From Alphaproteobacteria bacterium (GTDB taxonomy: Bacteria > Pseudomonadota > Alphaproteobacteria > Thalassobaculales > Thalassobaculaceae), in contig JADHLJ010000001.1 of the NCBI GenBank assembly GCA_016780745.1, positions 1 through 34,536 on the forward strand: DNA of 34,536 bases, in the 5' to 3' direction. Below, piece by piece: positions 11,023 through 34,536 of the stretch. The notes beneath the pieces are model-generated. The model was not told where the DNA came from. It worked only from the letters and a program-made list of their open reading frames with translations, and did no database searches. The first letter of the stretch is position 1. Every line of letters begins with the position of its first letter. A program made the translations under genes and the position numbers.

Positions 11023-12519
<1,497 letters not shown>

Positions 12520-16606: not shown

Positions 16607-16990
16607 ATGTTGCGAATTCCAAACCGACGAGATCGGGGTTTAGGAATCTGGAGCGCGCGGTTGCTCGCGCTCATGCTGATGGCCGTGGTATCAGGCTTCG
16701 CGTTCTCGGCGCCGGCGAACGCGCTTTCGCTTGATGAAGCCCGCGCGCAAGGCCTGATTGGCGAGCAGCCGAACGGATATCTCGGGCTGGTGCCAGGGCA
16801 ATCCAACGCACGGGCCGCGACGCTGGTCGAGCAGATCAACGCTAAACGTCGCGCCGCCTATCAATCAGTGGCGGACAGCAACGGCACGACTTTGAAGTCG
16901 GTCGAAGCACTGGCCGGAAGCAAACTAATTGGTCGGCTCCAACCCGGGCAATGGTTTCGGGACCAGGGCGGTCAATGGCGACGCCGCTGA
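16607..16990 (+). CDS. ydbL: YdbL-like periplasmic protein (DUF1318)
   Basis: The track ORF is 16562..16990. The ATG at 16607 is preceded by a gggggga SD. There is a signal peptide ending SAPANA|LSL. The mature part LDEARAQGLIGEQPNGYLGLV...INAKRRAAYQSVADSNGTTL matches the DUF1318 pattern. Confidence 0.75.
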   Translation: MLRIPNRRDRGLGIWSARLLALMLMAVVSGFAFSAPANALSLDEARAQGLIGEQPNGYLGLVPGQSNARAATLVEQINAKRRAAYQSVADSNGTTLKSVEALAGSKLIGRLQPGQWFRDQGGQWRRR

Positions 16991-19665: not shown

Positions 19666-21435
19666 TCACGCGTTAGCTGGACTGGTTACGACGTTGATTG
19701 CTCGATCGTCGGGCTGTTTGCTTCCACCGCCGCCGCCAAGAATTGGAAGCATCTCTTCCCTAGGGCCGATGCGCTGAATTTTACCATCCACCAGCACCAT
19801 TACATAGTCCAGGACCTTTAGGATATTTGGTCTGTGCAAGATCAAAACGACGGTTACGCCGCGCCGCTTTAACTCTTCAATCGCCGCCGCGAGCGCTTCT
19901 TCGCCATGGGCGTCGAGATTGGCGTTCGGTTCGTCCAAAACCACGAGCTTTACATCGCCATAGAGCGCGCGGGCCAAGCCAACACGCTGCATCTGCCCCC
20001 CCGACAATAGCGTGCCACCATTGCCGACAACGGTCTGATAGCCTTGGGGCATGAACTTGACCATCGTGTCGACATTGGCGAGACGGGCGGCGTCCAGGAT
20101 TCTTTCGCTGGTCCAGTCGTCGGCTTGTCGCGCGATATTGTCGCGTACCGTTCCGCCGAATAACTCAACATCCTGAGGCAGATAGCCGATATGGGCGCCG
20201 AGGTCGACCGATGGCCATTCATGTAGATGCGAGCCATCGAGTTTCACGGATCCGGCGCTTGGTCGATCGAGGCCCACGAGAAGTCGGGCCAAGGTCGACT
20301 TGCCGGAAGCGGAAGGACCGACGATCCCCAAGGACTCTCCGGGCTTCAGCGAAAAGTCGATGTCTTTCAAAACTGGTTCAGGCGCCGAGGGAGGATGGAA
20401 ATTCAATCCTTCAACCTTCAGTTCCCCTTGGGGGGCGGGCGGCGTTTCTTGCTGGGCCGGTGTCCGCGCGGCGGCCTGTCGCAGCGCCGCCGACAAGGCC
20501 TTGTAATCACCTATCGCTTCGTTGATCGGCGCCCAGCCGGTGACCAGAAACTGCACCGGCATTAGGACACGCCCCACGAGGATGACCGATGCCATCATTG
20601 CACCGCGTGACAAATTGGTGTCGGGGTGGATGATCAGGATCGCGCAAACGGTCATGATTGCCATCATCGAGCCGAACTGCATGGTTTTGCCGACCGCCGC
20701 CATCAGTCCCATGCGTCTCGTGAAGATCGCGAGCCTATCGAGAGCGACATCGTTGTCCTGCTCCCAACGGCGCCCGACCCGTGCGCCCATCCCCATGGCT
20801 TCGATGACGTCGGCGTTGCGCAGGCTTACCTCGGCCTTGCGATTGGACTCGCCCATCGCGGCCAGGCCGACCTCGCGAACCGGACCGGTCGCCCATTTGT
20901 TGGCGAGCGCTAGGAAGAGAATGAACACGGCGATCGTCGTGGCGGCGACGCCGATCCAGAACTGTAAGAAGAAAAGAAATGCCAGAAATAACGGCACCCA
21001 CGGTAGGTCCATGACCATGAAGATTTGTTCGCCGGCTAGGAAGTTCCGGAGGGAATCCATGCGGCTCAGAAGTTCCGTGTCACGTCTTGATCCACGCGCC
21101 GTGGCGTTGCGCAAGGAAAGCGCGAAAATTTTTCGCCCGATCTGGTGGGCGATCCATGAACTTACACGCACGAACAAATAGGTGCGCGCGATATCAATCA
21201 CGGCCTGGATAAGAAGGGCGGATAACGCGAAGAGCGCCAGGAACGTGAGGGTAAACTGGTTGCCACCACCGCCCAAGACACGGTCGAAAAGCGAGAACAT
21301 ATAGACAGGCATGACCAATATGAGGGCATTGACGAAAAAGCTGAAGATCGCGGCGGTCGCGAACGCCCCGCGCGCCGCCCACAGCATCTCCTTCAGGGGA
21401 TCGCCACCTGACGCGGTCTTGGTTCCTGCGGCCAT
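19666..21435 (-). CDS. Type I secretion system permease/ATPase (PrtD/AprD/RsaD type, no C39 peptidase or CLD domain)
   Basis: 589 aa. It has an N-terminal 6-TM domain (FSFFVNALILVMPVYMFSLFDRVL), Walker A GPSASGKST, ABC signature LSGGQMQR and Walker B LVVLDEPNANLD. An AGGTGA SD lies 5 nt upstream of the ATG. Confidence 0.92.
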   Translation of the reverse strand: MAAGTKTASGGDPLKEMLWAARGAFATAAIFSFFVNALILVMPVYMFSLFDRVLGGGGNQFTLTFLALFALSALLIQAVIDIARTYLFVRVSSWIAHQIGRKIFALSLRNATARGSRRDTELLSRMDSLRNFLAGEQIFMVMDLPWVPLFLAFLFFLQFWIGVAATTIAVFILFLALANKWATGPVREVGLAAMGESNRKAEVSLRNADVIEAMGMGARVGRRWEQDNDVALDRLAIFTRRMGLMAAVGKTMQFGSMMAIMTVCAILIIHPDTNLSRGAMMASVILVGRVLMPVQFLVTGWAPINEAIGDYKALSAALRQAAARTPAQQETPPAPQGELKVEGLNFHPPSAPEPVLKDIDFSLKPGESLGIVGPSASGKSTLARLLVGLDRPSAGSVKLDGSHLHEWPSVDLGAHIGYLPQDVELFGGTVRDNIARQADDWTSERILDAARLANVDTMVKFMPQGYQTVVGNGGTLLSGGQMQRVGLARALYGDVKLVVLDEPNANLDAHGEEALAAAIEELKRRGVTVVLILHRPNILKVLDYVMVLVDGKIQRIGPREEMLPILGGGGGSKQPDDRAINVVTSPANA

Positions 21436-21637: not shown

Positions 21638-22921
21638 ATGTCGAGGAAAAGGCGACTTTACGTGAAAATTCTGTTTGTTCACCAGAACATGCCGGGCCAA
21701 TACAAGCATCTGGCCCCCGCCTTGGCCGCCAACCCGGCGAATGAAGTGGCGTTCATCACCAAGGAAGGCAAGCCCGACCTGCCCGGCATCAGGAAAGCGA
21801 CGTATAAACTTACCCGTGAGCCTAGCAAGGGGATCCACCAATATCTGACCCGACTGGAGGACCAGGTCCTGCACGGACAGGGTGCTGTTCGCGCCGCCCT
21901 CGAATTGGCGGAAAGCGGGTTTGTTCCAGATGTGATCTGCGCTCATACGGGGTGGGGGGAGGCGCTATTCCTGAGAGATGTCTTCCCGAATTCCCGAATC
22001 CTGGCATTTTCCGAATTCTATTATTCCTCGAAGGGCGCGGATATCGACTTTTCGCCGGATCATAAACCGGATCTCGATCGTGATTGCCGTACCCGCATGC
22101 GCAACACCCATATGCTCATGAGTCTGGAGGCCGCCGACTGGGGTATCAGCCCGACCCGATGGCAATGGAGTCGGCATCCGTCTTTCGTCCGTGATCGTAT
22201 TTCGGTTATTCACGAAGGCGTGGACACTGACTTGTGCACCGCCGACCCCAAGGCAGTGCTTGAGCTACCCAATGGCATGACGCTGTCCAGAGACGATGAA
22301 GTGGTTACGTATCTCGCCCGAAATCTGGAGCCCTATCGCGGCTTTGACATCTTCATGCAAAGTATCAACGGCATTCTTGAACGTAGGCCGAACGCGCGCA
22401 TTGTGTTGGTGGGCGGGGACGACGTCAGTTACGGCAATCCCCCGCCCAATGGTGAGAATTGGCGGAACTTCATGTTGGCGCGCACCAGATTTGACCCGCG
22501 CCGCGTGCATTTTTTTAATCGTGTGCCGTATTCCGTTTTTCAGCAGGTGTTGTCGATTTCAAAGGCGCATGTCTATCTGACCTATCCTTTCGTGCTGTCC
22601 TGGTCGATGTTGGAGACCATGAGCCACGAATGCATGCTGATTGCGTCAAAAACCGCGCCCGTGACCGAGGTTGTCGAGGACGGCGTCAACGGTCGCCTGG
22701 TATCCTTTCACAATCCGGCCGAGATAACCGATGCGGTGGTTTGGGCCTTGGAGAACCAGGATGCCACGGTCAAGTACCGCAAGGCCGCGCGCGAAACCAT
22801 CGTCGAGAAATACGATCTTCGAAAAGTGTGCTTGCCGGCGCAGGTCGATCTCGTCTCCACACTCGCGGAAGGGCGAACGCCGCCGCTGATGGACCCGACA
22901 TGGACGGCCGCGACGGCTTGA
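21638..22921 (+). CDS. Glycosyltransferase, GT4-like (GT-B fold)
   Basis: 427 aa from the ATG at 21638. An alternative GTG at 21662 is preceded by aggaaaagg. The N-terminus is KILFVHQNMPGQYKHLAPAL...HTGWGEALFLRDVFP and the C-terminal half is typical GT-B (VLVGGDDVSYG..., LETMSHECMLIASKTAPVTEVVEDGVNG). Confidence 0.8.
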   Translation: MSRKRRLYVKILFVHQNMPGQYKHLAPALAANPANEVAFITKEGKPDLPGIRKATYKLTREPSKGIHQYLTRLEDQVLHGQGAVRAALELAESGFVPDVICAHTGWGEALFLRDVFPNSRILAFSEFYYSSKGADIDFSPDHKPDLDRDCRTRMRNTHMLMSLEAADWGISPTRWQWSRHPSFVRDRISVIHEGVDTDLCTADPKAVLELPNGMTLSRDDEVVTYLARNLEPYRGFDIFMQSINGILERRPNARIVLVGGDDVSYGNPPPNGENWRNFMLARTRFDPRRVHFFNRVPYSVFQQVLSISKAHVYLTYPFVLSWSMLETMSHECMLIASKTAPVTEVVEDGVNGRLVSFHNPAEITDAVVWALENQDATVKYRKAARETIVEKYDLRKVCLPAQVDLVSTLAEGRTPPLMDPTWTAATA

Positions 22922-24549
22922 TGATCAGGGCCCGGGAAGCGCTTTCCCGAGGTGACACGGATGCGGCGTCCCGCGCCTTTCGCGCCTGTATCTGTAGCGA
23001 GCCGGAACAGGCGAGAGGCTACTTTAATGTCGGCGTGCTTTTTGGCCGTGGTGACTATCCCGGGGCCGCGGAGGCGGTTTATCGCCGGGCCCTTCTAATC
23101 GAGCCGGTTCACGAAGGCGCTCTCGGTAACCTCGCGGATCTTTTGTTGTTCGCCGGTCGTGACGTCGAGGCGGAGACGCTTTGCGCCGTTGCCTCTCGGA
23201 GGGCGCCACTTTCCGGAAAAATTCAAGGCAATTTGGCTCTTCTTCGTCTGCGGCGCGGCGCGAGGGATGAAGCGGGGTTGAACATCCGGCGCTCTCTTTG
23301 CGCGGAGCCGGGCTACGCGAAGGCTTGGGGGATCATGGCAATGCTGCGCCACGATGACGGTCTCGTCGCCGAGACCGCTTATGGTCGCGCTTGGTCGAGT
23401 GGTGCGCGCGATCCCGGGCTGCTAGCCAATCGTGGTGAAATCGCGCAACGCGAAGGGCGCATCGGCGCGGCGATGGAATTTTACAATCAGGCGTTGGCGA
23501 TGGCGCCGGGCGACGCGGATATCTTGGCGAATCTCGCCACGGCGAGCATCGACGACGGCGATTTCCGCGCCGCGTCCCGCCATGCGGCGGCGGCTCTGCG
23601 GATCGATCCGGGCCATCGCGTCGCGCGTTGGATCGAAGACTGGGTGTCCCTTGCACATCGCGATTTTGAAACTGGCTTCCGTAGTTTTGATGAGACATGG
23701 CGCGCGCCCGATCAAGACGCTCCGGCGAATGCGACGGCCTACCCTCTTTGGGAAGGGGGACGACTTGATGGTCCGCTTCTGTTGTGGTGCGAGCACGGGC
23801 TTGGCGACGAGATCCTTTACGCTGGCATGATCGACGATGTGTTGTCCTTGGGCGTTGATGTTGTGCTGGAAGCTGATCCGCGGTTGGTGCCCTTGTTTCA
23901 ACGATCCTGGCCCGTGGCGCGGGTGATCGGACGGGGAGGGGCGATACCACCGGGCATCGTCGCTCAGTCCTCGGTTTTGCGACTGCCGATGTTGTTTCGT
24001 CGAACGCTTGCGGATTTCCCCGCGCGATCATCATATCTGATCGCCGATCCGGCAAAGGTCGCGACGTACCGGGAACTATTCAAACAATCCGATCGGGAAA
24101 CCGTCATTGGAATTTCCTGGCGTTCTGGAAATCTCCGTACCGGCGCGGGCAAATCCACGCGCTTAAAGGATTGGGACGCGTTGCTGGACCTGCCGGGCGC
24201 GCAATTCCTAAGCCTACAATACGACGATGGCGGCGAGACCGACCCTCGTGTGGCGTGCAACCCGAGCGACGATACGAAAAACGATCTCGAAGATCTCGCG
24301 GCTCAGATCGCGGCGCTCGATCACGTCGTTTCAATATCCGGGGTGACCGCGCATCTCGCCGGGGCGTTGGGCGTGCCAGGGCACGTCCTGCTGCCGCCGG
24401 CGCCGCTCTGGTTCTGGTTCGCCGAGGGGGGGGATTGTCCGTGGTATCCAGCTCTTACACTCGGGCGGCGTGCCCATGGCGAGGATTGGCCCCCGGCGGT
24501 CGCGCGACTTGCGGCGGCGACGCGGGCATTCTTAGCGAACCAACGGTGA
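22921..24549 (+). CDS. TPR-repeat protein fused to a GT9-like domain, paralogue 2
   Basis: The track ORF 22630..24549 overlaps the upstream gene. The in-frame ATG at 22921 shares its A with the GT4 TGA stop (TGATG). It has TPR-like repeats (AEAVYRRALLIEPVHEGALGNLADLL..., AMEFYNQALAMAPGDADILANLA...). The C-terminal part reads LLLWCEHGLGDEILYAGM...VTAHLAGALGVPGHVLLPPAPLWFWFAEGGDCPWYPALTL. Confidence 0.75.
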   Translation: MIRAREALSRGDTDAASRAFRACICSEPEQARGYFNVGVLFGRGDYPGAAEAVYRRALLIEPVHEGALGNLADLLLFAGRDVEAETLCAVASRRAPLSGKIQGNLALLRLRRGARDEAGLNIRRSLCAEPGYAKAWGIMAMLRHDDGLVAETAYGRAWSSGARDPGLLANRGEIAQREGRIGAAMEFYNQALAMAPGDADILANLATASIDDGDFRAASRHAAAALRIDPGHRVARWIEDWVSLAHRDFETGFRSFDETWRAPDQDAPANATAYPLWEGGRLDGPLLLWCEHGLGDEILYAGMIDDVLSLGVDVVLEADPRLVPLFQRSWPVARVIGRGGAIPPGIVAQSSVLRLPMLFRRTLADFPARSSYLIADPAKVATYRELFKQSDRETVIGISWRSGNLRTGAGKSTRLKDWDALLDLPGAQFLSLQYDDGGETDPRVACNPSDDTKNDLEDLAAQIAALDHVVSISGVTAHLAGALGVPGHVLLPPAPLWFWFAEGGDCPWYPALTLGRRAHGEDWPPAVARLAAATRAFLANQR

Positions 24550-24560
24550 CCAAACAAACC

Positions 24561-25241
24561 CTAGGCGAGGCGATCTCGCTCGGCTAACCAAAGATCCGCG
24601 TAGTCCACGTGCCGCCAGTTCTCGAACCAGGGCCCGCCGCGTGTGAAGTGGATGGCGCCGGGCGCCCGTTCCGGATCTGGACTGTCCCAACCCTCAAGCC
24701 AATTCCATGTCGGGTCAAGACCGCCGATCTCCGCGTCGTCGACCCACTGAAAACGGTGCAAATAAGCGCCGGATTGTGTGTTCGCCGTTTCCACGTTGAG
24801 CTTGCGAGTGGCCGGGTGACTACAATTCAATAACATCAGGCTCGACCAGTTTTTACGTGGGTAGACGGACTGGGTCTGGCCATCCATCTTGACCGTTTCC
24901 CTCGGGCGATAGTCGTGCTGGACACACATTACGGCGTATTTCTCGTCCGCTTTCGCGAAAATCTCGGCGACGTCGCGAGTCCAGAGAAAATCGCAATCGC
25001 AGAACAGTGCCCAGCCTTCGTATCCCGCGAGATGGGGGACCAGAAACCGAGTGTAGGTAAACTCGGTCGAAGCTAGGGGGTCGACATCCCGATGATACAA
25101 GCCACGTTCGCGCAGGTCGTCCTGGATGATTGGCGTAATGTGGAGCGTGGCGTTGGAATGTCGCTCGAGAGAGGCGCGGCAAACATCAAAGGCTTCGGGC
25201 TCTCGACTGTCCCATCCAACGTATATCCGCAATGCGCTCAT
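24561..25241 (-). CDS. Putative GT-A fold glycosyltransferase (GT8-like, DXD = DCD)
   Basis: The track ORF is 24561..25376. The likely start is the ATG at 25241 (MSALRIYVGWDSREPEAFDVC...). The internal sequence STEFTYTRFLVPHLAGYEGWALFCDCDFLW has a DXD-type motif, followed by ...YPRKNWSSLMLLNC. It resembles small GT8-like transferases. The family call comes from motif memory only. Confidence 0.5.
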   Translation of the reverse strand: MSALRIYVGWDSREPEAFDVCRASLERHSNATLHITPIIQDDLRERGLYHRDVDPLASTEFTYTRFLVPHLAGYEGWALFCDCDFLWTRDVAEIFAKADEKYAVMCVQHDYRPRETVKMDGQTQSVYPRKNWSSLMLLNCSHPATRKLNVETANTQSGAYLHRFQWVDDAEIGGLDPTWNWLEGWDSPDPERAPGAIHFTRGGPWFENWRHVDYADLWLAERDRLA

Positions 25242-25423
25242 TCCATTCTCCGGCCCCGGCCCGGTGGCGATCCAGGATCGGCGAGTGATAGCGAACCTGC
25301 CTAGCCAAGGCAACGCGGCAATCCGCCCGGGTTGCCCGCCGCTCTCGACATCCATCCCCATCTCGGATAAAGCCAAGCGCTGATTTCAACGTTGCTTTCA
25401 TCCTATGTTTGGTCATCTCTAGA

Positions 25424-27094
25424 ATGTCCCCACGACCGAATTGCGCGATCAACTACCACCCCGACGGTTACAAGGCGGATCGGGAACAGGTTAAAGGGCG
25501 GCATGCCGCCGGCGCCGGCTTCCTGAAAGGCTTCATTGATCACTCCGGGGTGGACCGGCTCGTCGCGATGACCCCGTCCAAGACGCATTTCGAGGACTTC
25601 CGGAATGTTGCCCGGGCGCTTGATCCCGCTGGGCGCGAAGCGGTCTGGGCTCGCCCATTGGACGCGCGGGTCCTGCGCGAGGTTGGCGCGATTTTCATGC
25701 CTGGCCCAGGTTTCGAGGACGAGGCATGGAACAGGCGCCTCGGAAATGAGCGGGATTACAGTCTCTGCGGTCTTACCCACACTGTTGCCTCGGATCGGGT
25801 CATCAATGCGCTGGGCCGTTATCTCGTCGCGCCAACGCAGCCCTGGGATGCGCTTATCTGTACCTCCACGTCGGTACGCGCGGTTGTTGAACGGGTCATC
25901 GAGAGCCACGCGGATTATCTCGCCGAGCGAAGTGGCACCCGTTTCGAGAATCCCGTTCAGCTTCCAGTGATACCACTCGGAGTTGATTGTGATTTTCACG
26001 CGCGGAGTGATGCTAGTCAGGGCGCGGGCGCGGATTTACGGCGGCGATTGGGTATTGCGGAAGATGATCTGGCGGCGCTTTTTCTCGGGCGTTTGTCGTT
26101 TCACGCGAAGGCACATCCAACGCCAATGTTGATGGCAATGGAACGCGCCGCGCGTCGAACGCCGGATCAAACGCTTCATCTCGTCATTGTTGGGCAGTTC
26201 CCAAATCAGTGGATCGAGAAGGAATTCAAGGATGCCGCCAAGCGGTTCTGCGGCGCCGCGCGGGTCCACATTCTGGACGGCGCGAGCCATGAGGTCGTTC
26301 GCGCGGCCTGGAGCGGTTCCGATATCTTCATCTCGTTGTCCGATAATATTCAGGAGAGCTTCGGGCTGACGCCGATCGAGGCAATGGCGGCCGGCCTTCC
26401 TTGCGTCGTTTCGGACTACGACGGCTATAAGGATACAGTGGTGGATGGCGAAACCGGTTTTCGGATCCCGACCACCGCCCCCGGCCCAGGAGCAGGCGTC
26501 GATATCGCCGATCGATACGGTATCGGCCTGGACAGCTACGATCGCTTCATAGGTATCGCCGCCTTGTCGACGATGACGGATGTTGATGCCTGCGCCGAGG
26601 CGATCAGCCGTCTCGCGACGGATCGGGATTTGCGCGCCCGCATGAGCGCGGCTGGTGTGGAGCGGGCTAGGCGTTTCTATGACTGGCGGGTTGTCGTGGA
26701 GTCATACCAGGACCTTTGGGCGGAACTCGCGGAGCTTCGATCCGGCGCCCAGGGGATCGGTATTCGCAACCACGCGACACAGGCCGCGAAAGTTGACTTC
26801 CCCGACCCTTTCGACATGTTTCAAGGGCATCCAAGCAGGCTCTTGACCGAGAATAGCGTGGTCGCCTTCAAGAGTAAGTCTCCGGCGCGAGACCTCGAGA
26901 TTGTGCGGATGGGAGAGTTGCATACTTTTGTGTCCTATGCCCTTCTGCCCGAGCCGTCGCTTGACGCGTTGATGGAGGAGTTGAGCGCGGGGCCGAAGAA
27001 AGTCGGGGACCTTGCCGCCTTCTCGCGTGACGGGCGCAAACTGCTGCGCACCCTGGCGTGGTTGGGCAAGTTTGATTTGGTGGAGTTCAAATGA
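25424..27094 (+). CDS. Glycosyltransferase family 4 (retaining GT-B) with extended N-terminal domain
   Basis: The track ORF begins at TTG 25409; the first ATG is at 25424 (MSPRPNCAINYHPDGY...). The EX7E motif is in ESFGLTPIEAMAAGLPCVVSDYDGYKDTVVDGETGF. About 556 aa. Confidence 0.85.
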   Translation: MSPRPNCAINYHPDGYKADREQVKGRHAAGAGFLKGFIDHSGVDRLVAMTPSKTHFEDFRNVARALDPAGREAVWARPLDARVLREVGAIFMPGPGFEDEAWNRRLGNERDYSLCGLTHTVASDRVINALGRYLVAPTQPWDALICTSTSVRAVVERVIESHADYLAERSGTRFENPVQLPVIPLGVDCDFHARSDASQGAGADLRRRLGIAEDDLAALFLGRLSFHAKAHPTPMLMAMERAARRTPDQTLHLVIVGQFPNQWIEKEFKDAAKRFCGAARVHILDGASHEVVRAAWSGSDIFISLSDNIQESFGLTPIEAMAAGLPCVVSDYDGYKDTVVDGETGFRIPTTAPGPGAGVDIADRYGIGLDSYDRFIGIAALSTMTDVDACAEAISRLATDRDLRARMSAAGVERARRFYDWRVVVESYQDLWAELAELRSGAQGIGIRNHATQAAKVDFPDPFDMFQGHPSRLLTENSVVAFKSKSPARDLEIVRMGELHTFVSYALLPEPSLDALMEELSAGPKKVGDLAAFSRDGRKLLRTLAWLGKFDLVEFK

Positions 27095-28887
27095 GCTACA
27101 TGGTGCAAGCGGATGCAAAGCCACGCCGGCCCGTCGCGCAGTATTGCCGTGATGCCGATAAGTTGTTCGAGGCGAAGAAAATAGCCGAGGCCGAGGCGCT
27201 TTTGTCGGAAGCCATTGGTGCTTACACCGCGGATGTCGGACTTCAATGGCGGATGGCCGATGTCGAGTTCAGAAAAGGCCAAGTGGCGGCCGCCAAGCAA
27301 CGATTGGTTCGGGCTGGTAACGGCAATCCCGCCGGATGCGACGGCGCGTTCTTCAATGCCGGTGTTCGATTGGGGCGTGCCGCCAAGGATATCGCCTTTG
27401 CCGAAGGCATGGTGAAAGCAGGACTGGAACGCTTTCCGTTGAATCCCGAGTTGCGCCAGCACGCTGGCGGGCTGCTCGCCGACGCGGGGAAACACGCCGC
27501 CGCGGTCGAGCAACTCGAGGCGGCTGTCAATATGGATCCGACAAATGCGCCAGCGCTGAATGCCCTGGGGTATTCACTGGAGCAGATCGGAGAATTGGAC
27601 CGCGCTGATCGCGTGCTACGGAGTGCCCTGGGTCGGGTGACGCCCGAGATCGGGTTCAATGTCCTCGTAAATCTTGGCAATGTGGCGCAGAAACGCGGCG
27701 CGTTGGCGCAGGGGCGCGGTTATTATCAACGGGCTCTTAAGCTTCGGAAGCCTGGGTATCTCTATGCGAACTATGGCGCGCTGCTTCGAAAATCCCATGA
27801 CTTCGACACCGCCGAGTTGGTGTACCGCAAAGGGCTGACAATCGACCCGGGCGCGGGCGGTTCCTATTACAATCTCGCGAACCTCTACAAGGAGGTTGGC
27901 GACCTCGATCGCGCGATCGAAGCCTATCGGCGAGGGCTTCGGATCAACCCGGAAGGGGCATCGATCCATTGGAATCTTTCCTTGACCTATCTTGGCGCTG
28001 GCCGATTGCGAGAAGGTTTCGAGGAATACGAGTGGCGATGGCGGTATGACGGCTTTCCCTCTCGCCGGCGAAATTTCGAGCAACCGCAATGGAGCGGCGA
28101 ACCACTCAAAGGACGAACCCTGCTCGTGCATGCCGAGCAGGGGATCGGGGACCATCTTCAATTCGCGCGTTTCATTCCCGTGCTCTCGAAGCTCGACGGC
28201 CGGGTGATCGTCGAGTGCCATGAGCCGCTGATGCGTCTGTTTCAGCACTATGCCGGGGATGTAGAGATCGTTGAGCGCTTGAAGCAGCCGAATGATTTTG
28301 ATCTGCATCTTCCATTGTTGAGCGCGCCACTAGCGCTGGGCGTCCACTCCTTGGAGGATCTTCCGGGCGCGCCGTTCCTAGCGCCGCCGGTGGATTGGAA
28401 GTTCGATATTCCCGAGGCCAAGGCGAACGCTTTCAAGGTTGGTATAATCTGGGGTGGGAATCCGAATTTCCCGGGGGATGGCGAGCGTTCCGCGAAACTC
28501 GACTACTATCTGCCGTTGCTGAAGAACAAGCGCGTTCAACTCTTCAGTTTGCAAAAGGGCGAGCGAGAGCCGGATTTGAAGGACGCGCCGAAAGAGGTCG
28601 TGCGTCTAAGCGATAGAATCAACGACTTCTGCGATACCGCCTCGATTATGACGCAGATGGATCTAGTTATCACCACCTGTACCTCGACGGCGCATCTCGC
28701 GGGCGCCTTGGGAGTCCCGGTTTGGGTCGCGCTGCACCACAACCCGGATTGGCGTTGGCTACGGCATCGCGAGGATAGTCCCTGGTATCCGAGCGCGCGG
28801 TTGTTTCAACAGAAAAGTCCGGGTGATTGGAAAGGCGTGTTCAAATCCATCGAGCGAGCCTTGAAGAAATCAACCGCCAAACGCTGA
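27091..28887 (+). CDS. TPR-repeat protein fused to a GT9-like domain, paralogue 3
   Basis: 598 aa. Its ATG overlaps the GT4 stop (ATGA at 27091-27094). It has multiple TPR repeats (NALGYSLEQIGELDRADRVLRSAL, YYNLANLYKEVGDLDRAIEAYRRGLRINPEGA...). The C-terminal part reads WSGEPLKGRTLLVHAEQGIGDHLQFARF...TSTAHLAGALGVPVWVALHHNPDWRWLRHREDSPWYPSARLFQQ. Confidence 0.8.
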   Translation: MSYMVQADAKPRRPVAQYCRDADKLFEAKKIAEAEALLSEAIGAYTADVGLQWRMADVEFRKGQVAAAKQRLVRAGNGNPAGCDGAFFNAGVRLGRAAKDIAFAEGMVKAGLERFPLNPELRQHAGGLLADAGKHAAAVEQLEAAVNMDPTNAPALNALGYSLEQIGELDRADRVLRSALGRVTPEIGFNVLVNLGNVAQKRGALAQGRGYYQRALKLRKPGYLYANYGALLRKSHDFDTAELVYRKGLTIDPGAGGSYYNLANLYKEVGDLDRAIEAYRRGLRINPEGASIHWNLSLTYLGAGRLREGFEEYEWRWRYDGFPSRRRNFEQPQWSGEPLKGRTLLVHAEQGIGDHLQFARFIPVLSKLDGRVIVECHEPLMRLFQHYAGDVEIVERLKQPNDFDLHLPLLSAPLALGVHSLEDLPGAPFLAPPVDWKFDIPEAKANAFKVGIIWGGNPNFPGDGERSAKLDYYLPLLKNKRVQLFSLQKGEREPDLKDAPKEVVRLSDRINDFCDTASIMTQMDLVITTCTSTAHLAGALGVPVWVALHHNPDWRWLRHREDSPWYPSARLFQQKSPGDWKGVFKSIERALKKSTAKR

Positions 28888-28899
28888 TTGGACTTCGGA

Positions 28900-30108
28900 A
28901 TGCCCGGGCGCCGCATTCTTTTCATTTGGGAACTTGGTGACGGTCTGGGCCATGTATCCCGGATCTTGCCCTTGGCGCGCCAACTTCAAGCCGCCGGCGA
29001 GATTTGCATGTTCGCCGTCCGCAACGTGGAGAATAGCCATCGGGTTTTGGACGGGACGGGCATGGGGATGCTTCAGGCTCCTCTGACGCAACCGGTTACG
29101 GACTATGACGGAAAGGCCTCCATCGGCGCCTATGGCGACATCATGGAAACCATCGGATACGCGCGTGTCGAGCGATTGCACGCGATGTTGACCGCCTGGG
29201 ACGGGATCTATGAAACCGCGCGTCCAGACCTGATTGTCGCCGATTACGCGCCGACCGCCCTTCTCGCGGCCAGGGGGCGGATTCCGGCGGTTGCGATTGG
29301 TGACTGGTTCACCTTGCCGCCAAGCACGCTTCCAGCTTTCCCGTATCTGCGCGAGACCGGGCCCCGGATCGCGGAGGCGGATTTAATGCGCGTCGTTCAC
29401 GAGGCTCAGCGCCGACGGGGAGCATCGGCGCCGGCGGCAATGCCTGGAATTCTGGATTGCGCCGCGGCATTCATCATCACCTTGCCGGAACTTGACCAAT
29501 ACGCGGACAAGCGACGGCTGCCCGCTGTTGGGCCATTGACGCCGCTTCCCGAGCCGCTGGAGAACACGGACCACGAGGTGGACTACTTCGCGTATCTGTC
29601 GCTGGGATTTCGCCCGACCGTCAAGGTGCTCGAGGCGTTGGTCAAGATGCGGCTGAGGGGAAGTATCTATCTGCGTGACTCCTCCGCGCTTCAGCGTGAT
29701 TCCTGGCGCGAACGAGGGCTGACCATCCATGATGGACCGCAGGATCTGAGAGAAATGGCGCGTCGGAGCGCGGTGATGATCCATCATGGCGGGCTCGGGA
29801 CGATTGAAACGGTGTTTGCCTTGGGGCGTCCACAATTGCTGGTGCCCCGGCATTTGGAGCAAGGCGTGAACGCGGCGATGGCCGGGCGCTTGCGTTTGGC
29901 TGTTGGAATGCAAACCGGTGGACGATTCGAGGGGGAACACGTCTCGCGGGCGTTGAATCACGCGCTGGCATCCAAGGATCTTCGGGACAATGCCGCTCGG
30001 AAGGCCGAGGAACTGGCCCAGCGAGGACCGTTCAACGCGCTTGAACCGGTGACTGAATTCTGTTTAACCACGCTGGCGACGGGTATCCAGCAATCGAAGG
30101 GATCATAA
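28900..30108 (+). CDS. GT1-family (UDP-glycosyltransferase / MGT-like) glycosyltransferase
   Basis: The start is ATG 28900 or TTG 28888. The N-terminus is RILFIWELGDGLGHVSRILPLA. The C-terminal nucleotide-sugar signature is MIHHGGLGTIETVFALGRPQLLVPRHLEQGVNA, matching the HHGGxGT...(D/E)Q..NA pattern. Confidence 0.8.
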   Translation: MPGRRILFIWELGDGLGHVSRILPLARQLQAAGEICMFAVRNVENSHRVLDGTGMGMLQAPLTQPVTDYDGKASIGAYGDIMETIGYARVERLHAMLTAWDGIYETARPDLIVADYAPTALLAARGRIPAVAIGDWFTLPPSTLPAFPYLRETGPRIAEADLMRVVHEAQRRRGASAPAAMPGILDCAAAFIITLPELDQYADKRRLPAVGPLTPLPEPLENTDHEVDYFAYLSLGFRPTVKVLEALVKMRLRGSIYLRDSSALQRDSWRERGLTIHDGPQDLREMARRSAVMIHHGGLGTIETVFALGRPQLLVPRHLEQGVNAAMAGRLRLAVGMQTGGRFEGEHVSRALNHALASKDLRDNAARKAEELAQRGPFNALEPVTEFCLTTLATGIQQSKGS

Positions 30109-30109
30109 G

Positions 30110-31018
30110 ATGGCGTTGGACAATAAAATGGCGGGCAAGGATCTCAATGATGACGATATCCGCGACAAAATCCCGTTGGTTGCCAAGGATCACCCGGACC
30201 ACAAGTCGCGTTTCTCGGTGGCTGGTGTCGAGTTCGGTGGCCCGCTGATCCCGGTGATGGGCGGCCCGAACACCGTTGAGAACGAGGAAATGATCGTCAA
30301 GACCGCCAAGGGCATTAAGGCCTCGGGCGGCCATTTCCTACGCGGCGGCGCGTTCAAGCCGCTGACCTTTCCGTACCGTAGCGAGAAATACTACGAGACC
30401 CGCGAGCAGGGCCTGGAATGGCTTCAGGTTGCCAAGAAGGAAACCGGCCTGCCGGTCGTCACCGAGGTGATGGACGTCGCCAAGATCGACGTGGTCGCAA
30501 AGAACAGCGACATGCTGCAGATCGGCACTCGCAACATGCAGAATTACGTCCTGTTGACCGAGGTCGGCAAGACCGGGATGCCGGTGATGTTGAAGCGGGG
30601 TTATGGCTCCTCGCTTCGTGATTGGCTGATGGCGGCGGAATACATCGCGCTCGAACATGACCGTCTTGGCCAACAGCAGCAGATCGTGCTGTGTGAACGC
30701 GGCGTGGTGTCGAACCATACGCATCGCGCGGGCTCTCGCTTCCTGCTCGATCTTCAAGTGGTTCCGGCGGCCCAGGACGTCACCCATCTCCCGGTGATGA
30801 CCGATCCTTCGCACGCGACTTTCTGGCAGCCCTGGGTGAAGCCGATGATGCTGGCTTCAATTGGCGCCGGCGCGGACGGGCTGATGCTGGAAGTTCATCC
30901 AAACCCGCCTGAAGCCGCCGTCGATCCGCTCCAATGCAGCTCTCTCGAACAGTTCGACGAGATGATGAAGGCGATGCGCCCCGTGGCCGCCGCGATTGGA
31001 CGCACGCTGGACGCGTAA
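30110..31018 (+). CDS. Divergent DAHP-synthase-I-beta / KDO8P-synthase superfamily PEP-dependent aldolase
   Basis: 302 aa, with an AAGGGA SD; the ATG lies 1 nt after the GT1 stop. The backbone motifs are LRGGAFKP, LPVVTEVMD, MLQIGTRNMQNY, PVMLKRG, VLCERG, LPVMTDPSH and GADGLMLEVHPNP..A.VD. There are two deviations from the canon: GGPNTVEN where DAHPS has GPCxVES, and KPLTFPY where it has KPRTSPY. Confidence 0.8.
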   Translation: MALDNKMAGKDLNDDDIRDKIPLVAKDHPDHKSRFSVAGVEFGGPLIPVMGGPNTVENEEMIVKTAKGIKASGGHFLRGGAFKPLTFPYRSEKYYETREQGLEWLQVAKKETGLPVVTEVMDVAKIDVVAKNSDMLQIGTRNMQNYVLLTEVGKTGMPVMLKRGYGSSLRDWLMAAEYIALEHDRLGQQQQIVLCERGVVSNHTHRAGSRFLLDLQVVPAAQDVTHLPVMTDPSHATFWQPWVKPMMLASIGAGADGLMLEVHPNPPEAAVDPLQCSSLEQFDEMMKAMRPVAAAIGRTLDA

Positions 31019-31106
31019 GCGGCCATGATGGAGAATCGGATCCGGTGATGACTCGATTCTCCATGTCTCACGGACTTTCTGGGGCAAGCCCGGGCCGGAA
31101 TGTGCA

Positions 31107-32294
31107 ATGACCCATGTTCTGGTCGACGCGCTGATCGAGCATTTTCGAAATACGCCGCGCGATCGCATGGCGCGTGGCGATTTCTACCGTATCAATCATG
31201 ATTTTGTCGCGGCGGCTCGTGATCAAGGGTTTAACGCGACGATCGAGGATGCGGCCCGGTTGCTTGAAGACGGTGTGTCACCATCGCTCTGGGCCGAAAC
31301 CTCCCGCCAACGCGAGGCGACTCATCTCGCGCTTCGCCAGGTCGCGGGGATGGCGCCCGAGACCGTTCTTGATCGTGCAATTTTGGACTTTTTGAACGGA
31401 TCGCCCGGTGACGCTGTCCGCGGCATTGGCGAAGTTCAACGTCAGGGTATCGAGAGCTTTGGAAAATATCGTTCCATGCTCAATCGTGGACACGACCGTG
31501 GGCTGGCGATCTGGCAGGTTATGAACCCGTTCTATTTCCTGTGGGCGTCGCTGCCGGTCGCTAGGACCACGCCCAGCGATCGATGGCGCGAGGATCAGTT
31601 CAACAACACGCCCGAGCCGACCACCGAGAGCACGCGGTCGGCCAACGATCGTATGCTGGTGGAATTTCTACGCGGCGAGTTGGGTTCCGAGTTCTGGTCG
31701 ACGACAAGCGTGTTGGATTGTGGTTGCGGGCACGGGCATACCGCCAGCTTGCTGATAGATGAACTCGGCGTTGATCCGTCGGCCTACTCCGCCTTTGATC
31801 TGCACGAAAAGCGCGTTGAGCGCACCAGGTCCGTGGCTCTGAGCGCCGCGTCCAACATGTCCGCGACGCCTGCCGGCGCTTCAATAGACGATCGCTTTTT
31901 CCCATTGGATATCCTCGCGGACGACGCACCCAAGCGTATTCAAGCGCTGGGGGAGGTCGATGTGGTTTTTTCGACAAGCTTCACCAACGTGTTCGATGAC
32001 ACGCAACTTCCACTGATCCTGAAAAGGATGACGCTGCCCAAGCCAAAGGTGATCGTTGATATCTCGGTGACCACCAGTTGGGGCTTTTGTATCGGTCGTA
32101 TCGATCCTTCGGCGGCGTATCGAGCGGCGGGCTACCAACTGCGGGTGTCGCGTCTTGAAACGCCCGCGCTAGAGGCGAACGAAACCCATCGGCTATGGAT
32201 GCCGCAACGCTATTGGTCCAATAGAAACATTTTGATCTACGAGAAAATTCCCGGGAGTGACGATCGCGATCTTGGAAAACAGCTTGGCGCTTAG
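31107..32294 (+). CDS. Class I SAM-dependent methyltransferase with ~200-aa N-terminal domain of unknown function
   Basis: 395 aa. SAM motif I is at about residue 205 (SVLDCGCGHGHTASLL), followed by the acidic post-I residue in AFDLHE and motif II-like VDVVFSTSF. I do not recognise the N-terminal half. Confidence 0.65.
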   Translation: MTHVLVDALIEHFRNTPRDRMARGDFYRINHDFVAAARDQGFNATIEDAARLLEDGVSPSLWAETSRQREATHLALRQVAGMAPETVLDRAILDFLNGSPGDAVRGIGEVQRQGIESFGKYRSMLNRGHDRGLAIWQVMNPFYFLWASLPVARTTPSDRWREDQFNNTPEPTTESTRSANDRMLVEFLRGELGSEFWSTTSVLDCGCGHGHTASLLIDELGVDPSAYSAFDLHEKRVERTRSVALSAASNMSATPAGASIDDRFFPLDILADDAPKRIQALGEVDVVFSTSFTNVFDDTQLPLILKRMTLPKPKVIVDISVTTSWGFCIGRIDPSAAYRAAGYQLRVSRLETPALEANETHRLWMPQRYWSNRNILIYEKIPGSDDRDLGKQLGA

Positions 32295-32339
32295 CGAACC
32301 GCGCGGTAAATCAGTTGCGACCCAAAAAGGATAAGGACG

Positions 32340-33230
32340 ATGTCGGACACTCTGTTCCCCGATTTACTCGACAATTCGGTTGCCGTGACCACCGAAAGAT
32401 ACGCGGCGATCCTGGGCCTGGCGCCATCAAAGGGCGCGCGTTCGCCAATTCTGTGGAACGCGGCTTTCGCGGTGGCCGGCATGGACGCGGTGATGCACCC
32501 CTTTGATGTCAACGAGGCCAAGTTGCCCGGTCTTGTCGCCGCGCTGAAAGCCGATCCTCGCTATATCGGCGGCAGTGTCGCGGTGCCGCACAAGCAAGGC
32601 CTGGTGCCGCTTCTCGATCGACTGGAGCCCGAGGCCGAGCGCATCGGCGCGGTAAACGCCATTTACCGTGACGGCGAAGATCTGGTCGGCGCCAATACCG
32701 ACGGCGCTGGGGCCTTGGCGCAGCTTCAAGAGGTTGTCGATGACTTGGCCGGACGGCACGCGATCGTGCTGGGGCTCGGCGGCGCCGGTTTGGCGGTGGC
32801 GGCTTATCTCGCGGCCAATGTTGCCTCGCTTCGGTTGGCGAACCGCACCGCCGAGACGGCAACCGCCTTCGCCGAGCGGTTGGGCGGCAAGGTGCGAGCG
32901 GTTGGGATGCCCAATTCCTCGGCGGATCTGCGCGGCGTCAATCTGATCGTGAACTGCACGTCGGTCGGGCACCAGGACGGCGATCAGGCCTCCTCGCTTG
33001 GTGATAACAGCGAGGCCCTGCTGGATGCCATGCCGGATGACACGGTGGTCTACGACATCATCTATCAGCCGGCGGAAACCGAGTTACTCCGTCAGGCAAA
33101 GGTGATCGGCTTGGTGACCCTGAACGGGCTCGGGATGAACCTGGATCAGGCGGTCATCGCCTTCGAGAAGGCCAATCCCGGACGGCTTTCCATCGACGAG
33201 ATTCGTGACGCCATGCAATCGGCTGGTTGA
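32340..33230 (+). CDS. Shikimate/quinate dehydrogenase family (AroE-like) oxidoreductase paralogue
   Basis: 296 aa. Motifs present are ARSPILWNAAF (SxSPxxHNxxF region), GGSVAVPHKQ (catalytic Lys), IGAVNAIY, GANTDGAGA (catalytic Asp), the Rossmann stretch VLGLGGAGLAVAAYL, the NRT motif and GLGMNLDQAV. AAGGA lies upstream. Confidence 0.8.
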   Translation: MSDTLFPDLLDNSVAVTTERYAAILGLAPSKGARSPILWNAAFAVAGMDAVMHPFDVNEAKLPGLVAALKADPRYIGGSVAVPHKQGLVPLLDRLEPEAERIGAVNAIYRDGEDLVGANTDGAGALAQLQEVVDDLAGRHAIVLGLGGAGLAVAAYLAANVASLRLANRTAETATAFAERLGGKVRAVGMPNSSADLRGVNLIVNCTSVGHQDGDQASSLGDNSEALLDAMPDDTVVYDIIYQPAETELLRQAKVIGLVTLNGLGMNLDQAVIAFEKANPGRLSIDEIRDAMQSAG

Positions 33231-33237
33231 GCCGTAA

Positions 33238-33741
33238 ATGACCGTCATACTGGTTCGTGATCCAGCCCAGGCCAGGCTGCCCCAGGAAGACGACGACGCG
33301 TTCTGGCCGCTTGATTTCGATCGAGCCGTCGATAGTCCCCTTGAAGACGTGCTTGCGGAATTCGATGTGGTGATACCGGCGGATGATCTCCGCGTCGCCC
33401 CGCGACTGAGCGGCAAGGCACGGGTCGCGCTGCACTGTGTCCGGCTCGAGGCGTTGGAGCATTTGATCTCCATCGCCGGCGATTTCGACATCATTTTCAG
33501 TCCTAGCCTTTTGACGCGTCTGGATCGGCACCGGTCGTTGCGGCCGACATTGTTGGCGGCGCGGGCGATGGATGCCGGGCATCGGATCGTGGCGGCTGAT
33601 CTGGGATCCGAGACCGGTGGTGCCGGCATGTCGGCGGAACTGAAAGACACTGTCATCGGACGCGTGCTGCTCTATGATTTGCCGTCCGGATCGGCCATCG
33701 ATTTCGGGATGATCGGAGAGCGCGGGGAGGAACCGGCGTGA
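33238..33741 (+). CDS. Hypothetical acidic protein, no recognisable family
   Basis: 167-aa ORF. It starts 7 nt after the AroE-like stop, and its stop overlaps the next gene's GTG (GTGA). Codon composition resembles its neighbours. The coding call rests on this operon packing. Confidence 0.55.
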   Translation: MTVILVRDPAQARLPQEDDDAFWPLDFDRAVDSPLEDVLAEFDVVIPADDLRVAPRLSGKARVALHCVRLEALEHLISIAGDFDIIFSPSLLTRLDRHRSLRPTLLAARAMDAGHRIVAADLGSETGGAGMSAELKDTVIGRVLLYDLPSGSAIDFGMIGERGEEPA

Positions 33742-34418
33742 TCAGCGTGGTGCTGCGGGCCAAGAACGAGGCGTTCTGGATGGACAAATGTCTGACCGCG
33801 CTTCGCAATCAACGGGTGCCGGACATCGATGTCGTCCTTGTCGACAACGAATCGACGGATGACACGGTGGCGATTTCCGAGGCCCATGGAGTGACGCTGC
33901 GGACGATCACTCGAGACGAGTTCTCTTATGGCCGCGCCCTCAATATCGGCATCGAGGCGGCCCGTCACGACGTGGTCGCGCTGCTGTCCTCGCATTGCGT
34001 GCCGATCGACGAGCTTTGGGCGGACTATCTGTTGGCGCATCTCGGACCCGAGGGCGATCCGGCGGTGTGCGGAGTTTATGGCCGGCAAGAACCGATGCCC
34101 GATACGAGCGCCATCGACAAGCGTGACCTCTGGACAACTTTTCGCGATGAGCGGGTGCGTCAGTGCCGGGATTATTTCTTCCACAACGCCAATTCCGGCA
34201 TTCGCAAGTCGATCTGGAGGGATGAGCCGTTCGACGAGGAGATCCGAGGTGTCGAGGATCGGGAATGGGGCAAGCGAATGATCCGCCTCGGCCATGAAAT
34301 CGTCTACGAGCCGCATCTCCGGGTTTACCATCAGCACGGCATCCATCAGGGTCGCGACGAGGGGCGGGCCAAGCGGGTCGCCGAGGTCATCGACTACATC
34401 CGCACGAGCGTGCCATGA
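33738..34418 (+). CDS. GT2-like (GT-A fold) glycosyltransferase
   Basis: 226 aa with a GTG start. It reads ISVVLRAKNEAFWMDKCLTALRNQRVPDIDVVLVDNESTDDT..., then FSYGRALNIGIEAARHDVVALLSSHCVP and later RGVEDREWGKRM. This layout is typical of short GT2 proteins. Confidence 0.65.
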   Translation: MISVVLRAKNEAFWMDKCLTALRNQRVPDIDVVLVDNESTDDTVAISEAHGVTLRTITRDEFSYGRALNIGIEAARHDVVALLSSHCVPIDELWADYLLAHLGPEGDPAVCGVYGRQEPMPDTSAIDKRDLWTTFRDERVRQCRDYFFHNANSGIRKSIWRDEPFDEEIRGVEDREWGKRMIRLGHEIVYEPHLRVYHQHGIHQGRDEGRAKRVAEVIDYIRTSVP

Positions 34419-34536
34419 GCGAAACCTTAATCATCGTGCCGGTCCTGGCGGCCTCGAAGAGCACCGAGGCGATCCTTAAACCATTGCGCGGGCCGTCCAG
34501 TCTGGAGCGGACCCTTGCCGCCGTGATCGAGGATCT
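34415..34536 (+). CDS. 5' end of a possible sugar nucleotidyltransferase (cytidylyltransferase-like), truncated by the window edge
   Basis: Its ATG overlaps the GT2 stop (ATGA). My own translation is MSETLIIVPVLAASKSTEAILKPLRGPSSLERTLAAVIED. It loosely follows the IIPARxxSKRxxxKxLxxLxGxPLI N-terminal pattern of CMP-sugar synthetases, but the Arg and the KN are not conserved. Only 40 codons are visible. Confidence 0.3.
   Translation, partial: MSETLIIVPVLAASKSTEAILKPLRGPSSLERTLAAVIED

Follow-up and report, generated by a model that had tools for sequence, protein, structure and literature searches.

A DAHP synthase-derived enzyme at the head of a predicted CMP-ulosonic acid cassette in an alphaproteobacterial glycan region

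A run of six genes at the end of a 34,536-nucleotide (nt) stretch of alphaproteobacterial DNA (family Thalassobaculaceae; NCBI GenBank assembly GCA_016780745.1, contig JADHLJ010000001.1, positions 1 to 34,536 of the forward strand), hereafter called the window, was found to open a gene cassette headed by a relative of the first enzyme of the shikimate pathway. [quoted passage not shown] The known CMP-activated sugars of bacteria, i.e., Kdo, sialic, pseudaminic and legionaminic acids, and ketodeoxynonulosonic acid (Kdn), are made via synthases of the KdsA and NeuB families. The genomic case is strong that CMP-ulosonic acid biosynthesis would here be built instead on a recruited synthase derived from 3-deoxy-D-arabino-heptulosonate 7-phosphate (DAH7P, or DAHP) synthase (DAH7PS, or DAHPS); if this is true, the CMP-activated set gains a new biosynthetic route and probably a sugar that is new as well. 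No description of the cassette was found in full-text searches of the literature, the coverage of which extended to papers other than subscription-only ones.

The first gene of the run encodes a protein of 302 amino acids (aa), hereafter the DAHPS-like protein, the full barrel of which aligned with type Iβ DAH7P synthases in the PDB (1vs1, E 2.1e-60; 1zco, E 1.2e-57), and matches to Kdo 8-phosphate (Kdo8P) synthases were far weaker (E ~1e-16). The protein misses the curated cut-offs for type Iβ enzymes (TIGR01361, 260.1 bits vs 267.75; NF006421, 303.1 vs 335) as well as those for KdsA (TIGR01362, 78 bits vs 314; NF003543, 76 vs 242); the Pfam NeuB model gave 20.3 bits against a cut-off of 22.1, and no SAF domain was present within the protein. 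In the alignment with 1zco, Asn54 fell on chain position 31, and His235, Glu261 and Asp272 fell on positions 201, 227 and 238, which in the Pyrococcus furiosus enzyme are taken to be the metal-binding residues Cys31, His201, Glu227 and Asp238. The metal-ligand Cys is replaced by Asn54 in the DAHPS-like protein, and the His, Glu and Asp ligands are kept. A Cys-to-Asn replacement with the other three ligands retained is the defining change of metal-independent Kdo8P synthases (PMC3052366). The DAHPS-like protein is probably metal-independent as well and, if so, its Cys-to-Asn change would match, on the DAH7PS side, the division into metallo and non-metallo forms known among Kdo8P synthases.

Changes were also found in the loops. 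The KPRTS loop reads KPLTF and the DPSHPAGRR segment reads DPSHATFWQ, and three-residue insertions are located after the KPLTF loop and within ERGV-VSN-HTHR; an N-terminal extension of ~45 residues is kept throughout the clade described below. In KPR(T/S)S, the phosphate of erythrose 4-phosphate is presumably held by the Arg together with the Ser/Thr, an assignment for which no confirmation was found in the literature searched. Phosphate binding would be altered mainly because the invariant Ser has become Phe, together with the Arg-to-Leu change (seven Cys-containing relatives also lack the Arg). The KPLTF change and the two extended loops argue against canonically bound erythrose 4-phosphate as the aldose; a longer or an unphosphorylated one may be used.

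Motifs, tree and linkage were compared in the best 80 loci from a scan of one genome per GTDB species, which is a sample and not a census. These loci split into 30 clade sequences that are 56-97% identical to the window protein and 50 canonical relatives that are 41-49% identical. The clade motifs GPN(T/M)VE, KPL(T/S)F, HTHR and DPSHATFW were present in 30/30 clade members, and the Asn and the KPLTF replacement in 0/50 canonical sequences. The canonical relatives have GPC (50/50) and Ser at the last position of KPRTS (50/50), and the Arg of this loop is found in 43/50, with Ser in its place in 7/50. Invariant in all 80 sequences are Lys83, Arg141, Lys162, Arg163, Arg197 and His235, which we take to be the set that binds phosphoenolpyruvate (PEP), plus Glu261 and Asp272. 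The 30 clade members were monophyletic in a neighbour-joining tree, with identities in the multiple alignment of at least 57% inside the clade and of 38-55% to canonical type Iβ DAHPS; no clade member was found in either viral contigs or plasmids. We tentatively propose, as a possibility, that the clade forms a third functional, metal-independent DAH7PS/KDO8PS branch that makes an undescribed ulosonic acid, and that with the partner enzymes described below it serves a new class of CMP-activated acidic sugars on the surfaces of some very abundant marine bacteria (SAR11, Prochlorococcus, SAR86, SAR324) and of soil and water proteobacteria.

The genes surrounding the clade members point in the same direction. 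Linkage was counted by tblastn of the cluster proteins against the 80 loci and by clustering of open reading frames (ORFs) around 31 clade genes (the 30 loci plus L002), and the same module emerged from both; linkage of the AroE-like gene means its presence inside the fetched flanks of the DAHPS-like gene. An AroE-like gene, usually adjacent, was linked in 25/30 clade loci vs 1/50 canonical DAHPS loci (Fisher p 9e-15), a canonical cytidylyltransferase gene in 24/30 vs 0/50 (p 4e-15), and a gene for a family 2 glycosyltransferase (GT2)-like protein in 22/30 vs 0/50 (p 2e-13). Two of the five clade loci that had no AroE-like match lie on contigs that end right after the DAHPS-like gene. The recurrence of this DAHPS-like/AroE-like/GT2-like/cytidylyltransferase linkage in most of the 30 loci means that the arrangement is not due to chance. 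A first reading of the window from its letters alone, hereafter the original prediction, had recommended a check of whether this DAHPS-like clade co-occurs with AroE-like and glycosyltransferase genes, and AroE-like, GT2-like and CTP_transf_3 genes were indeed linked to it across phyla. A GFO/IDH/MocA oxidoreductase gene lies directly upstream of the DAHPS-like gene in 18 loci and is absent from window-type loci, and 4-nt overlaps are frequent in several lineages, both of the GFO/IDH/MocA with the DAHPS-like gene and of the DAHPS-like with the AroE-like gene. In 12 loci, 132 neighbouring ORFs were surveyed with Pfam and the 25 commonest families were listed; at the head of the list were CTP_transf_3 (18), GT2 (14), GFO/IDH/MocA (13) and Shikimate_dh_N (12), followed by methyltransferases (~6), carbamoyltransferase (4), ABC (4), GT1 (4) and GDP-mannose dehydratase (3); neither a shikimate-pathway family nor a phosphatase family was among these 25.

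In the window, the ORF map shows six co-directional ORFs on the + strand, running from 30110 to the window end at 34536, with intergenic gaps of 88, 45 and 7 nt followed by two 4-nt overlaps (GTGA at 33738-33741 and ATGA at 34415-34418), exactly as had been described in the original prediction. A promoter/terminator scan gave no signal exceeding shuffled expectation. The suggestion that the operon continues past the window proved correct when downstream genes were read on four contigs encoding an identical DAHPS-like protein, including NCBI GCA_040263795.1 and a 270-kb JGI contig. The order there is the 220-aa protein that starts in the window, a 237-aa CTP_transf_3 protein, a methyltransferase with weak TPR-like matches, a TIGR02466-type 2-oxoglutarate (2OG)-Fe(II) oxygenase, a DAO-type flavoprotein (FAD-oxidase), a class V aminotransferase, and a short-chain dehydrogenase/reductase (SDR). 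The six ORFs of the window are the 5' part of a cluster of roughly 11 genes.

Two of these genes bear on CMP activation. The 40-codon ORF at 34415 is the start of the 220-aa protein, which was read at full length on loci L001 and L002 and has only weak KdsB/CTP_transf_3 similarity. Its N-terminal motif, VPVLAASKSTEAILKPL (VPVLAASKS), is without the Arg, the Gly-Gly and the Lys-Asn of IPARGGSKGxxxKN and so does not constitute a CTP-binding motif; the protein is a degenerate cytidylyltransferase paralogue. The next gene, which is outside the window, encodes the 237-aa protein, in which the CTP-binding motif is canonical (IPARGGSKGLPGKN). The best curated match of this protein was PseF, at 105 bits, below the cut-off of 205.7, followed by KdsB-type models at E ~1e-15, and it is probably the active CMP-sugar-forming enzyme. 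The possible nucleotidyltransferase of the original prediction (34415) therefore belongs to the cytidylyltransferase-like family but is not the likely source of the activity, because the protein is degenerate and the probable active enzyme is encoded by the next gene.

The AroE-like protein has both shikimate dehydrogenase domains, and it keeps the catalytic Lys (PHK) and Asp (NTDG), the NRT motif for NADP and, in the substrate pocket, the Tyr and Gln. It scored below all 17 listed AroE/YdiB NCBIfam cut-offs (best 177.3 bits vs 295 and 165 vs 200.2), and the HSxSP carboxylate-binding motif of AroE reads GARSP in the window protein, with ARSP being invariant in 26 clade-linked orthologues. The match to 5-ketofructose reductase 7cok (E 1.7e-30) was about equal to the matches to true AroE structures and, because 7cok reduces a keto-sugar, sugar chemistry in a shikimate-dehydrogenase fold has a precedent.

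Public sources name the two proteins '3-deoxy-7-phosphoheptulonate synthase' and 'shikimate dehydrogenase'. They might simply be an ordinary DAHP synthase and an ordinary shikimate dehydrogenase that happen to lie beside glycan genes and that serve aromatic amino acid synthesis, a view to which the first of these names, the best PDB and NCBIfam matches (DAH7P synthases and AroE), the retained Lys/Asp dyad of AroE, and the retained Lys, Arg and His residues of DAHPS would all lend themselves. We nevertheless consider it highly improbable, since both proteins fall under every curated equivalog cut-off, the metal-ligand Cys and KPRTS are replaced in 30/30 clade members, and no other pathway gene lies within 10 kb or appears among the 25 commonest families of the 12 neighbourhoods; in addition, the clade is patchy (a single Prochlorococcus, a single SAR86, a single SAR324 and a few Pelagibacteraceae) and its linkage with cytidylyltransferase and GT2-like genes is tight. 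An aromatic role had been regarded as unlikely in the original prediction, and this opinion is reinforced by the contigs encoding an identical DAHPS-like protein, in which aroB, aroD/Q, aroK, aroA and aroC are all absent within 10 kb, so that no standard shikimate pathway follows downstream, and by the failure of the DAHPS-like protein to show the motifs of true DAH7P synthases. A natural-product cluster of the aminoshikimate or cyclitol type was rejected as well, since a dehydroquinate-synthase-like cyclase was found neither within 10 kb downstream nor in the list of the 25 commonest families. If the cassette is what we propose, the present names represent a systematic database mis-annotation that would be corrected.

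The GT2-like protein clearly belongs to its Pfam family (Glycos_transf_2, 73.4 bits vs a cut-off of 23.3), and its segment LLSSHCVP aligns with ILDCDMAP of chondroitin synthase 2z87, with S-S-H in place of D-C-D, so that the DXD motif is missing. Invariant over 22 orthologues are SxHCxP, FFHNANS, EDRxW and the His of YHxHG, and 15/22 are fused to a cytidylyltransferase-like domain: in these 15 loci the GT2-like and degenerate cytidylyltransferase-like domains form a single polypeptide of ~450 aa, as confirmed by Pfam in Prochlorococcus marinus MIT 9302. In the complete genome of this strain (L028, 6957-14699) the cassette is compact, with genes for a methyltransferase, the GT2::cytidylyltransferase-like fusion, GFO/IDH/MocA, the DAHPS-like protein, the AroE-like protein and a cytidylyltransferase, and a HAD hydrolase gene is located nearby on the opposite strand. 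The proposal that the GT2 protein is a dedicated transferase keeps its support from the Glycos_transf_2 domain, but the lack of DXD and the prevalence of the fused form make transfer only one of its possible roles.

The presence of two cytidylyltransferase-family proteins per cassette raises the question of whether the nucleotide is attached before the condensation and not after it. A polyol or sugar, for instance, would then first be given a CDP or CMP group by a cytidylyltransferase and be turned into an aldehyde by an oxidoreductase, after which the DAHPS-like protein would add the three carbons of PEP to it. The GFO/IDH/MocA gene immediately upstream of, and often overlapping, the DAHPS-like gene would suit such a sequence; Leu and Phe in place of the phosphate-binding Arg and Ser, together with the extended loops, would leave room for a nucleotide, and no phosphatase is conserved. 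Window-type loci, however, lack the GFO/IDH/MocA gene. Furthermore, to our knowledge, the characterised sugar-activating members of CTP_transf_3 all activate free 2-keto-3-deoxy acids at C2, and we know of no precedent in the DAHPS/KDO8PS family for action on a nucleotide-linked aldehyde. We therefore regard a nucleotide-linked substrate as unlikely and favour CMP activation of a finished ulosonic acid.

A PEP-condensing enzyme and a CMP-transferase are encoded together in the cassette, and the following pathway is suggested by homology and motifs. The DAHPS-Iβ-derived aldolase would condense PEP with an aldose to give a 3-deoxy-2-ulosonic acid; an unphosphorylated aldose fits here, because no phosphatase is conserved. 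The AroE-like NADP(H)-dependent dehydrogenase would then reduce or oxidise a ring position of this acid. The pyranose form of such an acid resembles quinate and dehydroquinate in having a hydroxyl and a carboxyl group on one ring carbon, and in most lineages a GFO/IDH/MocA oxidoreductase, which is absent here, may act alongside the AroE-like enzyme. Methyltransferases would provide optional decoration of the sugar. The 237-aa enzyme of the NeuA/PseF/KdsB family, with its CTP-binding motif, would make the CMP-sugar. Two roles may be envisaged for the pair formed by the GT2-like protein and the degenerate cytidylyltransferase-like one. The pair may transfer the labile CMP-sugar to a first acceptor, which the missing DXD fits, because CMP donors need no metal-diphosphate contact. 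Alternatively, it may free a sugar from a nucleotide sugar and thus feed the first step; PseG, LegG and NeuC are nucleotide-sugar hydrolases that feed nonulosonic acid pathways. Finally, the neighbouring TPR-containing glycosyltransferase (TPR-GT), GT4, GT1 and type I secretion genes suggest that the sugar would end on a secreted or surface protein or glycan.

Carriers of the clade were found in Thalassobaculum, Nisaea, Azospirillum, Denitromonas, a Pseudomonadales metagenome-assembled genome (MAG), Magnetovibrio, SAR324, SAR86, several Pelagibacteraceae and Prochlorococcus MIT 9302. Also among them are a small number of short MAG contigs whose taxonomic labels are odd and which are possibly mis-binned. 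Five clade loci contain a separate NeuB gene. Such a scattered distribution, in the company of glycosyltransferase, NeuB and flippase-like genes, is what is typically seen with surface-glycan cassettes that can be exchanged. The ulosonic acid might instead be turned into a soluble small molecule, e.g., a compatible solute, a signal or a secondary metabolite, given that the GT2-like protein is small, has no called hydrophobic domain and shows weak similarity to glucosyl-3-phosphoglycerate synthase models, that the cassette is found in many marine oligotrophs, and that the window-type extension includes FAD-oxidase, class V aminotransferase and SDR genes. We regard this as improbable, because GT4, GT1, TPR-GT, flippase-like ABC, NeuB and GDP-mannose dehydratase genes lie nearby, as in surface-glycan islands, and CMP activation is characteristic of glycosyl donors.

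Several points weigh against a glycan-directed ulosonic acid cassette of this kind. Loss of the KPRTS Arg is not specific to the clade, because the seven Cys-containing relatives mentioned above read KPSTS, and the HTHR loop of the clade could form a new phosphate or carboxylate site, so that an unphosphorylated substrate is unproven. In addition, AroE-like, GT2-like and cytidylyltransferase genes are all missing within 10 kb of the DAHPS-like gene in Nisaea loci: in L010 and L011 (10001-20903) the DAHPS-like gene closes an ABC/GT4/TPR/GT1 block and is followed by an arsR-methyltransferase gene, metF and metH. This arrangement is left unexplained by the cassette model. CMP-activated bacterial sugars shape phage and immune recognition, and the cassette lies in strain-variable, surface-glycan regions of SAR11 and Prochlorococcus; it may hence become a handle on surface diversity and phage susceptibility in these organisms.

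Table 1. Six-ORF run at the end of the window and neighbouring glycan and secretion genes, with predicted roles.
Feature	Position	Strand	Basis and remarks
DAHPS-type-Iβ-derived PEP aldolase, 302 aa	30110..31018	+	Pfam DAHP_synth_1 E 4.7e-47; predicted ulosonic-acid synthase
Accessory putative S-adenosylmethionine (SAM)-dependent methyltransferase, 395 aa	31107..32294	+	Sub-threshold Pfam matches; N-terminal half uncharacterised
AroE-like NADP(H)-dependent dehydrogenase, 296 aa	32340..33230	+	Shikimate_dh_N E 2.5e-17, Shikimate_DH E 4.9e-07; predicted tailoring oxidoreductase for the ulosonic acid or a precursor of it
Orphan protein, 167 aa	33238..33741	+	Lineage-restricted; weak SAF-like signal at the C terminus
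GT2-like GT-A-fold protein, 226 aa	33738..34418	+	Glycos_transf_2 E 2.8e-20; without canonical DXD
Degenerate cytidylyltransferase-like protein, first 40 codons of 220 aa	34415..34536	+	Truncated by window end
Context GT-B (GT1/GT28-like) glycosyltransferase	28888..30108	+	Sub-threshold EryCIII-like_C, Glyco_tran_28_C
Context TPR + GT9-like GT-B protein, 598 aa	27091..28887	+	TPR families N-terminal; candidate protein-directed glycosyltransferase
Context GT4 glycosyltransferase	25409..27094	+	Glycos_transf_1 E 9.3e-24
Context type I secretion pair, HlyD-family and ABC	18300-19658 (HlyD-family), 19666-21435 (ABC)	-	HlyD_3; ABC_membrane, ABC_tran

The methyltransferase Pfam matches of the 395-aa protein, at residues ~199-247, were all below the gathering score (best 22 bits vs 27), and no match was obtained against PDB sequences. 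At locus L006, where the DAHPS-like gene is 97% identical, the AroE-like gene comes directly next and no gene for the 395-aa methyltransferase is present; the sequence just upstream of the AroE-like start in the window aligns with the L006 stretch that separates the DAHPS-like gene from the AroE-like one (window 31019-32339 vs L006 10910-10994). By this comparison the methyltransferase gene is a strain-level accessory insertion/deletion, and it was rejected as a core step because it comes and goes between near-identical loci, which qualifies the original prediction, in which methylation was one of the tailoring steps. The 167-aa orphan gave a SAF match of E 8e-4 (20.3 bits vs a cut-off of 21), and its homologues form only 18 clusters in 5.8 billion proteins; it is confined to window-related loci, all of which lack the GFO/IDH/MocA gene. 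Its AlphaFold model was poor (predicted local distance difference test score, pLDDT, 59), and a Foldseek search of the PDB yielded no fold match.

The earlier part of the window contains housekeeping genes (lipoamide-dehydrogenase-like, xerC, priA and the atp operon), and then a glycan and secretion block, in the order TPR-GT9-like, HlyD and ABC on the - strand, followed by GT4, TPR, GT4, the 598-aa TPR-GT and the GT1/GT28-like gene on the + strand. The stop codon of the GT1/GT28-like gene is one base short of the DAHPS-like start codon; matches of its product to the MJ1255/VC2487 family and to PseG-like proteins were likewise weak, and in related loci the gene accompanies those for the TPR-GT and GT4 proteins. 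In the 598-aa protein, the C-terminal domain falls into a large family that public sources call 'TPR repeat-containing glycosyltransferase family protein'. Within 12 kb, three TPR-repeat proteins are encoded beside the type I secretion genes: one at 16972-18285 (-) with a Glyco_transf_9 Pfam match, one at 22630-24549 (+) with TPR matches only, and the 598-aa protein (27091-28887, +), of which the second is a paralogue and the C-terminal domain of which is GT9-like. An ORF at 24561-25376 (-) had no Pfam match; its 'CDCDF' segment is DXD-like, so that it was read as a possible GT-A-type glycosyltransferase, and it is kept with TPR-GT and GT4 genes in L006, L007, L010 and L011. In Azospirillum sp. 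ST 5-10 (L014), the place that the AroE-like gene has in other loci, between the DAHPS-like and GT2-like genes, is taken by a gene (11103-12227) for a protein with RTX calcium-binding repeats and peptidase_M10, and a type I secretion ABC homologue, the counterpart of the ABC protein of the window, is encoded ~7 kb from it. A secreted protein of the RTX type is a possible candidate for the glycosylation acceptor. Far from this block, a 383-aa ORF at 1765-2916 (-), directly downstream of the xerC-like recombinase gene (2921-3877), has a GC content of 0.45 vs ~0.61 around it and gave no Pfam or PADLOC match; it may be a foreign insertion.

Among known systems, the Kdo pathway (KdsD, KdsA, KdsC and KdsB) is similar in that a PEP aldolase of the DAHPS/KDO8PS superfamily is followed by a CMP-transferase of the CTP_transf_3 family. 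The Asn in place of the metal-binding Cys, with His, Glu and Asp kept, is shared with non-metallo Kdo8P synthases, a functional likeness that does not imply membership in KdsA: the DAHPS-like protein is only distant kin, with KPLTF where KdsA has KANRS. Unlike the Kdo pathway, the cassette has no conserved isomerase or KdsC-type phosphatase, and it has the AroE-like, GFO/IDH/MocA and GT2-like proteins as extra partners. The nonulosonic pathways for N-acetylneuraminic acid (Neu5Ac), pseudaminic acid and legionaminic acid (NeuB/PseI/LegI with NeuA/PseF/LegF) likewise consist of PEP condensation and then CMP activation and are encoded in variable surface-glycan islands; PseF is the best curated match of the 237-aa enzyme, and the ORF with the weak SAF-like signal recalls the SAF domain that NeuB carries. 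The condensing enzyme of the cassette, however, is not of the NeuB family, and no set of 2,4-diamino-sugar dehydratase, aminotransferase and acetyltransferase is conserved. Because the five loci noted above carry their own NeuB gene, the DAHPS-like enzyme is not a simple NeuB substitute there. Type Iβ DAH7PS and AroE are the closest relatives in sequence, and the cassette enzymes keep the catalytic residues of each, for PEP chemistry and for hydride transfer, whereas the Cys ligand, KPRTS and HSxSP are lost, loop insertions are present, and the genes are linked to CMP-transferase and glycosyltransferase genes.

Partial parallels are also found in the tailoring and transfer of nonulosonic acids. 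Pseudaminic acid is remodelled by EpaA, in which a CTP_transf_3 domain is fused to an aldo-keto reductase, together with the SDR EpaB (PMC12053666), which shows that a fusion of this sort plus a reductase can act on ulosonic acids. Similar to EpaA/EpaB and AciE-type tailoring in Acinetobacter, the cassette has a degenerate CTP_transf_3-like domain fused or adjacent to another protein, here GT2-like, plus one or two oxidoreductases. The partners differ, being an aldo-keto reductase and an SDR there and GT2-like, AroE-like and GFO/IDH/MocA proteins here, and the Acinetobacter enzymes modify existing pseudaminic acid, whereas the cassette has its own condensing enzyme. FlmG, which pseudaminylates flagellin in Caulobacter, is a 596-aa protein with N-terminal TPR and a C-terminal GT-B domain that uses a CMP-activated nonulosonic acid donor (PMC7591256). 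The 598-aa neighbour in the window matches FlmG in size and TPR/GT-B layout, which is a likeness in layout and not demonstrated homology, and a search with its C-terminal domain returned a very large 'TPR-containing glycosyltransferase' family with no match named FlmG. Unlike FlmG, it has type I secretion genes as neighbours, and no flagellar genes are present in the window. As context only, the SugarBase preprint reports undescribed higher-carbon CMP-ulosonic acids in Magnetospirillum, with no link to genes. Taken together, these comparisons indicate that the cassette would work like a Kdo or nonulosonic acid pathway, while by their defining features its enzymes appear to fall outside the KdsA and NeuB families as well as the true DAH7PS and true AroE families.

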